A stretch of DNA of 64,000 nucleotides from Escherichia coli (GCF_044324785.1 NZ_CP172127.1); one strand, 5' to 3'; counted from the stretch's first letter, positions 17,263 through 20,847 are shown. The notes: generated by a model not told the origin, from the sequence alone. Program-made: numbers and translations.

Positions 17263-17276
17263 TTTGATATATATCA
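17263..17276 (+). promoter_or_regulatory. perfect FNR box TTGAT-ATAT-ATCAA, now separated from pdeF by IS5
   Basis: Exact match to TTGAT-N4-ATCAA. In the reconstructed pre-insertion sequence its centre is 41.5 bp upstream of the TSS predicted from the TAGAAT hexamer. Confidence 0.75.
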
Positions 17277-17297
17277 ATTGGAACTTTCATATGACAC

Positions 17298-17301
17298 TTA
17301 G
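17298..17301. repeat. IS5 target-site duplication, left copy (TTAG)
   Basis: TTAG directly flanks both ends of the IS. Confidence 0.9.
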
Positions 17302-18496
17302 GGAAGGTGCGAACAAGTTCCTGATATGAGATCATCATATTCATCCGGAGCGCATCCCAGAGGGACATCATGAGCCATCAACTCACCTTCGCCGATAGTG
17401 AATTCAGCACTAAGCGCCGTCAGACCCGAAAAGAGATTTTCCTCTCCCGCATGGAGCAGATTCTGCCATGGCAGAATATGACCGCTGTCATCGAGCCGTT
17501 TTATCCCAAGGCGGGCAATGGCCGACGGCCCTATCCGCTGGAGACCATGCTGCGTATTCACTGCATGCAGCATTGGTACAACCTGAGCGACGGTGCCATG
17601 GAAGATGCCCTGTACGAAATCGCCTCCATGCGCCTGTTTGCCCGATTATCCCTGGATAGCGCCCTGCCGGATCGCACCACCATCATGAATTTCCGCCACC
17701 TGCTCGAGCAGCATCAACTGGCCCGTCAATTGTTCAAGACCATCAATCGCTGGCTGGCCGAAGCAGGCGTCATGATGACCCAAGGCACTTTGGTGGATGC
17801 CACCATCATTGAGGCACCCAGCTCTACCAAGAACAAAGAGCAGCAACGCGATCCGGAGATGCATCAGACCAAGAAAGGCAATCAGTGGCACTTTGGCATG
17901 AAGGCCCACATTGGTGTCGATGCCAAGAGTGGCCTGACCCACAGCCTAGTCACCACCGCGGCCAACGAGCATGACCTCAATCAGCTGGGTAATCTGCTTC
18001 ATGGTGAGGAGCAATTTGTCTCAGCCGATGCCGGCTACCAAGGAGCGCCACAGCGCGAGGAGCTGGCCGAGGTGGATGTGGACTGGCTGATCGCCGAGCG
18101 TCCCGGCAAGGTAAAAACCTTGAAGCAGCATCCGCGCAAGAACAAAACGGCCATCAACATCGAATACATGAAAGCCAGCATCCGTGCCAGGGTGGAGCAC
18201 CCGTTTCGCATCATCAAGCGGCAGTTCGGCTTCGTGAAAGCCAGATACAAGGGGCTGCTGAAAAACGATAACCAACTGGCGATGTTATTCACCCTGGCCA
18301 ACCTGTTTCGGGTGGACCAAATGATACGTCAGGGGAGAGATCTCAGTAAAAACCGGAAATAACGCCAGAAATGGTGGAAAAAATAGCCTAAATAGGCTGA
18401 TTCGATGTGTTTGCGGGAAAAAAATCGGCCCAGATCCGCGAAATTTTAATCAGCGAGTCTGCTTGGGAAGAAATGACCTGCTTATTCGCACCTTCC
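17302..18496 (+). mobile_element. IS5-family insertion sequence, 1195 bp
   Basis: Terminal inverted repeats GGAAGGTGCGAACAAG (17302-17317) and CTTATTCGCACCTTCC (18481-18496). 4 bp TTAG duplication. DDE transposase inside. Confidence 0.95.
17370..18362 (+). CDS. insH: IS5 transposase (InsH-like), 330 aa
   Basis: [37 protein letters not shown]... matches InsH by recollection. The C-terminal tail ...[10 protein letters not shown] differs from the ...QWERSH tail I recall for K-12. Confidence 0.93.
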
Positions 18497-18500
18497 TTAG
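18497..18500. repeat. IS5 target-site duplication, right copy (TTAG)
   Basis: Identical to 17298-17301. Confidence 0.9.
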
Positions 18501-18503
18501 AAT
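18498..18503 (+). promoter_or_regulatory. retained -10 hexamer TAGAAT of the pdeF promoter (half of it is the duplicated target)
   Basis: TAGAAT lies about 100 nt upstream of ATG 18604. It is now preceded by the IS5 right end instead of the FNR box. Confidence 0.5.
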
Positions 18504-18603
18504 CAATGCTCTCTATAGTGATGAATAATCATCATTCGAAGTCAGGTGGGATGCCTGTCTGAATACACCTCCTTCAGGATGTGGGGGATTCTGCTGAGCA
18601 TCT

Positions 18604-20847
18604 ATGAAACTGAATGCAACCTATATAAAAATACGTGATAAATGGTGGGGGCTTCCGCTGTTCCTGCCTTCTTTAATCTTGCCCATTTTCGCCCACATTA
18701 ATACTTTCGCGCATATTTCTTCCGGTGGGGTTTTTCTCTTTTATCTGCCTCTGGCACTGATGATCAGCATGATGATGTTTTTCAGCTGGGCGGCATTGCC
18801 AGGGATCGCCTTAGGGATTTTTGTCCGCAAATATGCAGAGCTGGGTTTTTACGAAACGCTCTCATTAACGGCTAATTTTATTATCATTATCATTCTCTGT
18901 TGGGGCGGTTACAGGGTCTTTACTCCCCGGCGTAACAACGTTTCACATGGTGATACCCGTTTAATTTCCCAGCGTATATTCTGGCAGATTGTGTTTCCTG
19001 CAACGCTGTTTCTGATACTTTTCCAGTTTGCCGCATTTGTAGGATTACTGGCGAGTAGAGAAAATCTGGTCGGCGTCATGCCTTTTAACCTCGGGACATT
19101 AATCAATTATCAGGCCTTACTGGTGGGTAATCTGATCGGTGTCCCGCTGTGCTACTTCATCATTCGAGTGGTGCGAAATCCGTTTTATTTACGTAGCTAT
19201 TATTCGCAATTAAAACAGCAGGTTGATGTCAAAGTCACCAAAAAAGAGTTCGCGCTCTGGCTACTGGCATTAGGTGCGTTGTTGTTGCTGTTATGCATGC
19301 CGTTAAATGAAAAAAGCACAATTTTTAGCACCAATTATACCCTGTCATTATTGCTGCCCCTGATGATGTGGGGAGCCATGCGCTATGGTTATAAGTTGAT
19401 TTCGCTGCTCTGGGCGGTCGTGCTGATGATCAGCATCCACAGCTATCAAAATTACATTCCCATTTATCCTGGATATACCACGCAACTGACCATAACCTCC
19501 TCCAGTTATCTGGTATTTTCTTTTATTGTTAATTATATGGCTGTACTGGCAACCCGTCAGCGAGCGGTAGTCAGACGCATTCAGCGGCTTGCGTATGTGG
19601 ACCCGGTGGTTCATCTGCCAAATGTTCGCGCCCTGAATCGCGCGTTGCGTGATGCCCCCTGGTCTGCGCTTTGTTATTTACGCATCCCTGGCATGGAAAT
19701 GCTGGTTAAAAACTATGGCATCATGCTACGGATTCAGTACAAGCAAAAACTTTCTCACTGGCTGTCACCCTTGCTGGAACCGGGTGAAGATGTTTATCAG
19801 CTTTCGGGTAACGATCTCGCGCTGCGACTGAATACAGAATCGCACCAGGAGCGCATTACCGCACTGGATAGCCATCTCAAGCAATTTCGTTTCTTTTGGG
19901 ATGGCATGCCGATGCAACCGCAGATTGGCGTCAGTTACTGCTATGTGCGCTCGCCAGTGAATCATATCTACCTGCTGCTGGGAGAGCTAAATACGGTCGC
20001 CGAACTTTCCATCGTGACCAACGCCCCGGAAAATATGCAGCGTCGCGGGGCAATGTATTTGCAACGCGAATTGAAAGATAAAGTCGCGATGATGAATCGA
20101 CTACAGCAGGCGCTGGAACACAACCATTTTTTCCTGATGGCCCAGCCGATTACCGGTATGCGTGGTGATGTTTACCATGAAATTCTTCTGCGCATGAAAG
20201 GTGAGAATGATGAATTGATCAGCCCCGATAGCTTCTTGCCGGTCGCGCACGAATTTGGTTTATCGTCGAGTATCGACATGTGGGTCATTGAGCATACGCT
20301 GCAATTTATGGCTGAAAACAGAGCGAAGATGCCCGCTCACCGTTTTGCTATTAATCTGTCTCCAACCTCGGTATGTCAGGCTCGTTTTCCTGTTGAAGTC
20401 AGTCAGTTGCTGGCTAAATATCAGATTGAAGCGTGGCAACTTATTTTTGAAGTCACCGAAAGTAATGCTCTGACCAATGTTAAGCAGGCGCAAATCACCT
20501 TGCAGCATCTTCAGGAATTAGGCTGCCAGATTGCGATTGATGATTTCGGCACCGGCTACGCCAGCTATGCGCGGCTTAAAAATGTGAATGCCGATCTGCT
20601 TAAAATTGACGGCAGTTTTATCCGCAATATTGTGTCAAATAGTCTGGATTATCAGATAGTGGCATCGATTTGCCACCTGGCGCGAATGAAGAAAATGCTG
20701 GTAGTGGCAGAGTACGTTGAAAACGAAGAGATCCGCGAGGCGGTGCTCTCTTTGGGGATCGATTATATGCAGGGTTATCTTATTGGTAAGCCGCAGCCGT
20801 TAATTGATACGTTGAATGAAATCGAACCCATTCGCGAAAGTGCCTGA
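18604..20847 (+). CDS. pdeF: cyclic-di-GMP phosphodiesterase PdeF (YfgF), 747 aa
   Basis: Polytopic N-terminal membrane domain, degenerate GGDEF region and a C-terminal EAL domain (FEVTES...AIDDFGTGYAS). Confidence 0.95.
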   Translation: MKLNATYIKIRDKWWGLPLFLPSLILPIFAHINTFAHISSGGVFLFYLPLALMISMMMFFSWAALPGIALGIFVRKYAELGFYETLSLTANFIIIIILCWGGYRVFTPRRNNVSHGDTRLISQRIFWQIVFPATLFLILFQFAAFVGLLASRENLVGVMPFNLGTLINYQALLVGNLIGVPLCYFIIRVVRNPFYLRSYYSQLKQQVDVKVTKKEFALWLLALGALLLLLCMPLNEKSTIFSTNYTLSLLLPLMMWGAMRYGYKLISLLWAVVLMISIHSYQNYIPIYPGYTTQLTITSSSYLVFSFIVNYMAVLATRQRAVVRRIQRLAYVDPVVHLPNVRALNRALRDAPWSALCYLRIPGMEMLVKNYGIMLRIQYKQKLSHWLSPLLEPGEDVYQLSGNDLALRLNTESHQERITALDSHLKQFRFFWDGMPMQPQIGVSYCYVRSPVNHIYLLLGELNTVAELSIVTNAPENMQRRGAMYLQRELKDKVAMMNRLQQALEHNHFFLMAQPITGMRGDVYHEILLRMKGENDELISPDSFLPVAHEFGLSSSIDMWVIEHTLQFMAENRAKMPAHRFAINLSPTSVCQARFPVEVSQLLAKYQIEAWQLIFEVTESNALTNVKQAQITLQHLQELGCQIAIDDFGTGYASYARLKNVNADLLKIDGSFIRNIVSNSLDYQIVASICHLARMKKMLVVAEYVENEEIREAVLSLGIDYMQGYLIGKPQPLIDTLNEIEPIRESA

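Follow-up and report, generated by a model that had tools for sequence, protein, structure and literature searches.

A 64,000-nucleotide stretch of Escherichia coli DNA (GCF_044324785.1, NZ_CP172127.1; hereafter "the window," with positions counted from its first letter) carries an insertion sequence (IS) in the promoter of pdeF, also known as yfgF. PdeF belongs to the enzymes that bring down cyclic di-GMP (c-di-GMP), and it links motility, surface remodelling, and behaviour under oxidative stress to oxygen status. We confirmed that the insertion, by an element we assign to ISKpn26 of the IS5 family, is real. It severs the FNR box from the -10 hexamer and splits a second, predicted promoter of the gene as well, and pdeF transcription should fall as a result. 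We give this reading a probability of about 0.72. The parts of the locus are as follows.

17264 to 17277, + strand: FNR box TTGATATATATCAA, perfect in both half-sites.
17298 to 17301, no strand: left copy of the TTAG target-site duplication, which with the first IS bases gives TAGGGA.
17299 to 17304, + strand: spoiled hexamer TAGGGA at the left junction.
17302 to 18496 (1195 bp), + strand: the IS element (ISKpn26, IS5 family), which starts GGAAGGTGCGAACAAG and ends CTTATTCGCACCTTCC (string search and reading of the sequence).
17302 to 17317 and 18481 to 18496: 16-bp terminal inverted repeats within ISKpn26 (string search).
17370 to 18362, + strand: transposase open reading frame (ORF), 330 amino acids (aa) from the first ATG, with Pfam DDE_Tnp_1 (E = 1.7e-35) and DUF772.
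18497 to 18500, no strand: right copy of the TTAG duplication (string search).
18498 to 18503, + strand: TAGAAT, native -10 of the FNR-dependent pdeF promoter, intact, with the IS end now 5' of it.
18604 to 20847, + strand: pdeF (yfgF), an uninterrupted ORF of 747 aa with Pfam MASE1 and EAL.
16862 to 17053, - strand: yfgG, 63 aa, divergent from pdeF (ORF list and equivalent annotation in E. coli genomes).

The original prediction, made from the sequence by itself, had placed the element exactly between the FNR box and the pdeF -10, and the IS boundaries, repeats, and hexamers were all found in the sequence. We also saw, as it had described, that the TTAG target overlaps the -10 and so leaves TAGAAT intact at 18498 to 18503, and that the FNR box, now 1.2 kb away, faces TAGGGA with the transposase gene in the same orientation. 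Two of its figures were each off by one base: the box starts at 17264 rather than 17263, and the restored spacer is 21 rather than 22 nucleotides (nt). When the IS and one TTAG copy are removed, the site reads TTGATATATATCAA, 21 nt, TAGAAT. Comparison with the uninterrupted yfgG-yfgF region of K-12, which the prediction had proposed, showed the restored site to be identical to the K-12 empty site except for one single-nucleotide polymorphism (SNP) in the spacer (A in the window, T in K-12). In the window itself, 1220 bp separate the FNR box from TAGAAT, and the adjacency of activator site to core promoter that characterizes class II promoters is absent. The 64-kb window contains a single perfect match to TTGAT-N4-ATCAA, where 0.11 would be expected by chance. 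Multi-copy IS elements commonly cause misassembly, and an assembler could in principle have put an IS copy in the wrong place. We consider this extremely improbable, as the full-length IS ends lie inside a perfect 4-bp target duplication of the IS5-family type and independent complete genomes show the same architecture.

Although the element had been named IS5, its sequence points to ISKpn26, an IS5-family member distinct from IS5 proper. In comparisons with annotated copies, the window element showed 100% identity to ISKpn26 copies on plasmids and 99.4 to 99.6% to chromosomal ISKpn26, compared to about 91% for IS5 and 78% for ISEc68. Among the best 5000 plasmid matches, the hosts were mainly Klebsiella, Escherichia, and Enterobacter. 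The family assignment is consistent with a length of about 1.2 kb, 16-bp inverted repeats of the form GGAAGGTGCGAA(C/T)AAG, a 4-bp Py-T-A-Pu duplication (TTAG on both sides; consensus per PMC5493358), and an IS5-type DDE transposase. The RefSeq product for the transposase in other ISKpn26 copies is 326 aa. Judging from the full-length ends, the intact ORF, and the identity to plasmid copies, this copy of ISKpn26 appears to be recent and is probably active.

The assignment of the box and TAGAAT as the pdeF promoter is well supported. As stated in a passage of Lacey 2013 (PMC3718329) that cites Lacey 2010, the E. coli yfgF promoter has an FNR box, TTGAT--ATCAA, at -41.5 and a TAGAAT -10, placing it in FNR class II. 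In the restored site, the 21-nt spacer puts the box centre at -40.5 to -41.5, taking a transcription start site (TSS) 7 to 8 nt past the hexamer. FNR occupies the region in vivo, with chromatin immunoprecipitation (ChIP)-seq and ChIP-chip peaks at yfgF/yfgG (Myers 2013, Tables S5 and S7), and the predicted site in Table S6 of that study is the exact 14-mer of the window box (position weight matrix score, 16.08). Using pdeF orthologues from species-representative genomes, we found that five genera keep the FNR half-sites, a spacer of exactly 21 nt, and a hexamer resembling a -10: Escherichia (TAGAAT), Kluyvera, Phytobacter, and Enterobacter (TAAAAT in all three), and Salmonella (TATAGA). Taken together, the published placement, the FNR occupancy, and the five-genus conservation support the earlier claim of a class II FNR promoter, with a box centre probably near -41.5.

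The FNR promoter is not the only one to be cut. Shimada et al. (2014; PMC3946193) predicted a constitutive sigma-70 promoter for yfgF, ATGACA-18-TATAGT, and flagged H-NS in this intergenic spacer. We located both hexamers in the window.

17291 to 17296, + strand: ATGACA, -35 of the second predicted pdeF promoter (PMC3946193).
18514 to 18519, + strand: TATAGT, -10 of the second predicted pdeF promoter (PMC3946193).

The TTAG target falls in the spacer between them, and the IS parts that -35 from its -10. The original prediction was thus right that the FNR promoter is split but overlooked this second predicted promoter, which is split as well.

We then considered what the right end of the IS could supply in place of the lost elements. 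The best -35 candidate for TAGAAT at the IS end is ATGACC (18473 to 18478), with a poor 19-bp spacer, and upstream of TATAGT the best hexamers (CCTTCC or CTTCCT at 15 to 17 bp) match a -35 at 2 of 6 positions at most. IS5, or an element in the opposite orientation, would give worse -35 candidates than the ISKpn26 of the window. A consensus scan of the window found no promoter at the right junction. With ATGACC and its 19-bp spacer as the best candidate and the scan empty, we rejected a new promoter at this junction as the main route of expression.

Downstream of the junction, the pdeF 5' leader (18534 to 18603, + strand) is conserved and untouched by the insertion. Across Escherichia, Kluyvera, Enterobacter, and Phytobacter it consists of GTCAGGTKGGATGCCTGTCT, a variable ACCC...GGGT hairpin, and then GAGCATCTATG. 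RNAalifold paired UGGAUGC with GCAUCUA at the start codon, a structure that could occlude initiation; its sides are near-invariant and give no covariation support. A search of the leader and the intergenic region against Rfam returned no match at E <= 1. The yfgG-pdeF intergenic region also holds a 50-aa ORF (17071 to 17223, + strand), listed in RefSeq as "hypothetical protein" WP_000017552.1, which overlaps the AT-rich promoter region, has no Pfam match, and may be spurious.

The course of events we propose is that ISKpn26 recently transposed into the only TTAG/CTAA target of the yfgG-pdeF region, which overlaps the -10 of the class II FNR promoter. For class II activation, FNR must sit at about -41.5, beside RNA polymerase. 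The native promoter would therefore no longer be activated directly by FNR, and by this established mechanism the insertion is expected to abolish that mode of activation altogether. Because both native promoters are disabled, pdeF transcription should fall. Residual pdeF transcripts would then enter from the IS and, in the + orientation, would come from read-through of the transposase promoter.

Several observations weigh against a strong effect of this kind. The original prediction had leaned on anaerobic, FNR-dependent expression of yfgF, and in papers that cite Lacey 2010 expression is indeed described as FNR-activated and highest anaerobically. In wild-type cells in anaerobic glucose minimal medium, however, FNR was bound and yet yfgF showed no FNR-dependent change (Myers 2013, Table S9). 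This implies that the native FNR input is perhaps small in some conditions and that its loss would be mild there. Only an hns/stpA mutant showed yfgF expression that depended on oxygen (+O2/-O2 = 0.23; Table S11), and in that mutant the FNR ChIP signal at yfgF/yfgG rose from 0.35 to 1.68 (Table S7). From these two changes we conclude that H-NS limits the pdeF promoter. In addition, where IS5 has inserted at other loci, neighbouring genes are often activated and not silenced (PMC11894529, PMC5493358), and the pdeF ORF is still whole, which is compatible with continued use as well as with a very recent insertion.

A different outcome is suggested by the left end of the element. Zhou et al. (2025; PMC11894529) found that the ins5A promoter, normally silent, is turned on at fucAO by a CRP site that lies at -61.5 and upstream of the left end of IS5. 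The reported ins5A promoter has a gtgcga -35, a gatcat -10, and a TSS at IS position 42, and its transcription crosses IS5 into fucAO (PMC11894529). The corresponding promoter can be placed in the window element.

17307 to 17343, + strand: P_IS, the predicted transposase promoter, with -35 GTGCGA (17307 to 17312), a 17-nt spacer, and -10 GATCAT (17330 to 17335).

It shares its hexamers and spacing with the reported IS5 promoter, and its predicted TSS is likewise the A at IS position 42 (17343). Relative to this TSS, the centre of the FNR box (17270.5) lies at -72.5, a class I-like position one base off the quoted -71.5 and one helical turn beyond the fucAO CRP site; class I FNR sites are described at -61.5 or -71.5 (PMC6343905). 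FNR control of pdeF might accordingly be rewired rather than lost: a class I FNR/P_IS fusion would make the transposase anaerobically inducible, and read-through would keep a weaker induction of pdeF. The + strand scan found no terminator-like site from the transposase stop (18362) to pdeF (18604), although there is a weak terminator-like hairpin within the element at 17995 to 18013. Besides the one-base offset, class I FNR promoters are seldom found in nature and activate less strongly (PMC3688515), with 8-fold compared to 20-fold activation (PMC6343905), H-NS dampens FNR occupancy at the pdeF site, and the read-through is known from IS5, to which ISKpn26 is just 91% identical. Insertions in the opposite orientation are also at least as common, so recurrence at the site (described below) does not depend on rewiring. 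On balance we regard this outcome as doubtful, but not far-fetched. Read-in to the transposase gene had been foreseen in the original prediction by way of the FNR box and TAGGGA. We judged that route unlikely, since TAGGGA is without the conserved final T of a -10; on geometry, the ins5A-type promoter with the box at -72.5 is the more plausible entry.

Whatever its effect, the insertion in the window is not a singular event, a point that the earlier account, largely right about the structure of the insertion, had overlooked. Using junction-specific searches, we surveyed 5426 complete E. coli genomes for an IS5-family end adjoining TTAGAAT. Nine had one, and five of these nine also retain the matching left junction. 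The carriers, with orientation given relative to pdeF, were as follows.

NMBU-W13E19: IS5 (+), both junctions intact.
TUM9812: IS5 (+), IS1 adjoins the left end, and yfgG is lost.
ETEC1720: IS5 (-), with the same junction matches in ETEC1722 and LCP22S3_I2 (those two by junction matches alone).
LR536431: IS5 (-), IS3 additionally interrupts pdeF.
CP53: IS5 (-), left-side deletion up to another YTAR site.
NT1F31: IS5 (-), left-side deletion up to a YTAR site different from that of CP53.
E5: ISKpn26 (-), left junction at the CTAA near yfgH that ISKpn26 uses in EPSSH018.

The ISKpn26 (+) allele of the window is in none of the nine carrier genomes. Over 950 nt of flank, SNPs place the window, NMBU-W13E19, and E5 in mutually distinct backgrounds that also differ from those of the K-12-like carriers, giving at least three backgrounds. 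With two elements, two orientations, and different backgrounds, we count at least five natural events, including that of the window. On a crude scale, the collection has about 5,500 left ends of IS5-family elements in addition to the flank matches, and a genome has about 14,000 CTAA/TTAG/CTAG sites. Uniform use would leave well under one copy per site compared to the nine seen here, these being copies and not independent events, with some of the counts being minimum values.

A further event comes from the laboratory. In a gallium-evolved MG1655 population, "IS5 (+) +4 bp" was reported in the yfgF/yfgG intergenic region (-104/-245) at a frequency of 0.5 in 10 days (PMC6928379). The distance from the yfgG start codon to the TTAG target is 245 nt, and because 104 + 245 = 352 - 3 in the 351-bp intergenic region, which fits no other position, we place the laboratory insertion at this TTAG. 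The "(+)" of that table converts to an orientation relative to pdeF only with the annotation of its reference. Repeated independent insertion at one tetranucleotide, the mark of a hotspot, was thus observed. In a literature search that did not extend to the supplementary tables of other evolution studies, the gallium table row was the only mention we found of IS5 with pdeF or yfgF, and no description of a hotspot was found. The exact junction TTCGCACCTTCCTTAGAATCANTGCTCTC had 0 matches in GTDB species-representative genomes and 0 in JGI metagenome contigs.

The survey also brought up a second recurrent ISKpn26 target, a CTAA that lies beside yfgH at a distance of about 1.5 kb from the pdeF TTAG (EPSSH018, locus positions 497 to 1696). 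The match table suggests ISKpn26 near yfgH in four complete genomes, of which EPSSH018 alone was inspected. Because the two flanks of the element in E5 (the yfgH CTAA and the pdeF TTAG) are not direct repeats, we read E5 as having lost yfgG by a deletion that runs from one IS5-family target to the other. Apart from the promoter, pdeF itself is disrupted in some strains, by ISEc68 in the MASE1-coding part in 21AR0133 and by IS3 in LR536431, some 150 nt from the start of the gene and in addition to the promoter IS5. In Shigella flexneri SFBU1023, the PdeF match is limited to residues 1 to 380. Loss of pdeF appears to be tolerated.

The sequence context offers one reason why this TTAG is struck. 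The yfgG-pdeF intergenic region has seven YTAR sites, of which the target is the only TTAG/CTAA and the other six are TTAA. The target lies near the downstream edge of an AT-rich island (17140 to 17301) with 20 to 30% GC (60-nt windows over about 200 bp of the K-12 empty site). The IS5 hotspots described by Humayun et al. (2017; PMC5493358) at glpFK, bglGFB, flhDC, fucAO as well as nfsB are likewise CTAA in destabilised, often H-NS-bound DNA. It is about an even bet that recurrence reflects target preference alone, with insertions that are neutral or slightly deleterious, short-lived, and under no selection on pdeF expression. Two elements in both orientations are what a structural hotspot predicts, carriers are rare (9/5426), and the closest relatives of the window have an empty site. 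However, an insertion can separate FNR from the -10 and leave the gene whole only at this TTAG, and selection would accordingly produce an identical pattern. The rise of the laboratory allele to 50% within 10 days and the later loss of the upstream region in several carriers also speak against target preference as the whole account.

The laboratory allele bears in addition on whether the insertion might activate or derepress pdeF. In that case, moving the AT-rich H-NS island 1.2 kb away and bringing in sequences from the IS end would make expression FNR independent and more constitutive, possibly through a hybrid ATGACC-19-TAGAAT promoter, IS bending, or IHF effects. IS5 activates bgl, glpFK, flhDC, and fucAO by derepression, DNA structure, or fusion promoters, and H-NS limits the native pdeF promoter, as the hns/stpA data above indicate. 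If the gallium culture was aerobic, as we assume, the loss of anaerobic induction alone should have been neutral, and yet the allele rose to 0.5. It may, however, have hitch-hiked with alleles at 0.45 to 0.64 in the same population (PMC6928379). The known cases of activation keep the core promoter, whereas here both native -35/-10 pairs are cut. The best hybrid -35 has the 19-bp spacer noted above, with IS5 or the opposite orientation faring worse, and the junction scan was empty. The IS3 and ISEc68 disruptions of pdeF, moreover, fit a tolerated loss rather than a gain. We therefore think activation improbable and retain reduced pdeF transcription as the preferred reading.

One could go further and view the pdeF TTAG as an oxygen-conditional hotspot and a population-level switch. 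The target would be exposed, and struck, when neither FNR nor RNA polymerase occupies the promoter, as in aerobic growth with H-NS bound. Insertion in the + orientation would then create the class I fusion, with anaerobic transposase expression and ISKpn26 movement and a weakened FNR control of pdeF, and insertion in the - orientation would turn pdeF off. We offer this as speculation that is unlikely to hold.

The insertion also appears young. Two draft genomes found by exact PdeF protein, GCA_043676975.1 and GCA_958315875.1, are 100% identical to the window flanks over 7.3 kb and have an empty site, so the insertion is recent in its lineage. The nearest complete E. coli genomes are no closer than about 99% over 21 to 24 kb, and over 45 kb the window is about 1% diverged from all 5426 complete RefSeq E. 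coli genomes (best match, strain N3). No complete genome in the set seems to represent its lineage.

Other features of the window and of the comparison set were recorded along the way. Ends of IS1, IS2, IS3, IS4, IS30, IS150, IS186, IS600, and IS911 were searched for in the 64-kb window, and none was found. At about 10400 to 15370, between the expected position of guaA and yfgI, the window has phage-like genes that include a 918-aa ORF (10477 to 13233) and, by comparison, an endolysin-like Glyco_hydro_19 gene and a DUF2514 gene (14778 to 15260). The otherwise identical drafts carry guaA there, and their identity to the window starts at 15371. This suggests that a prophage end is inserted between guaA and yfgI in the window strain. 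In three species representatives labelled E. coli or S. flexneri (CP178302.1, CP182557.1, and CP178306.1), PdeF was only 48 to 79% identical, and in CP178302.1 and CP178306.1 the promoter, invariant elsewhere, has substitutions or small indels. These three look like error-rich assemblies rather than cases of true divergence.

Taken together, the insertion belongs to a known kind of event, in which an IS5-family element enters a hotspot within a control region, and it is unusual in parting an activator site from its -10. What is new here is the recurrence at this TTAG, the placement of a laboratory event there, the recency of the insertion, and the splitting of a second, predicted promoter. A mobile element that cuts the oxygen-sensing input of pdeF makes a natural regulatory mutant of the link between oxygen and c-di-GMP. 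The site adds a candidate, one cut through a promoter, to the short list of IS5 control-region hotspots (glpFK, bgl, flhDC, fucAO, and nfsB). It is also a ready test case for extending the IS5 fusion-promoter mechanism to FNR and to ISKpn26, which is now spreading on resistance plasmids. For annotation, K-12-like expression of pdeF should not be assumed in strains with the insertion.

Compared to class II FNR promoters such as those of dmsA and ydfZ, with FNR near -41.5, the restored pdeF site is alike in its box, its -10, its published class, and its FNR binding by ChIP-seq. It differs in that the window box and -10 are now 1.2 kb apart and in that the wild-type pdeF promoter of K-12 is also limited by H-NS/StpA in glucose minimal medium. 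With the ISKpn26 insertions that inactivate Klebsiella genes (e.g., mgrB) it shares the element, which is plasmid borne in Enterobacteriaceae, and a regulatory or loss-of-function change brought about by insertion. Here, however, the promoter is struck and the coding sequence is whole, the host is an E. coli lineage, and no drug-resistance phenotype is implied.

The hotspots at glpFK, bgl, flhDC, and nfsB resemble the pdeF site in having a lone CTAA/TTAG in an AT-rich control region that is struck repeatedly, with H-NS implicated and with laboratory events. At pdeF, in contrast, the TTAG overlaps the -10, so that the promoter is bisected rather than receiving an upstream insertion, both orientations occur, and the destabilisation known at those hotspots is judged by AT content as a proxy. 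The nearest parallel to the proposed rewiring is the fusion promoter Pfsn at fucAO. Both have an IS5-family element at a CTAA/TTAG with its left end just downstream of a site for a CRP/FNR-family activator, the same transposase-promoter hexamers, the same orientation as the downstream gene, and an activator site that faces the same side of the helix (-61.5 at fucAO and -72.5 at pdeF). At pdeF, FNR takes the place of CRP one turn further upstream, ISKpn26 (91% to IS5) takes the place of IS5, and the arrangement is predicted from geometry. Finally, the native promoter at fucAO is intact downstream of the element and orientation is fixed, whereas at pdeF the native promoter is cut in two and both orientations are found.

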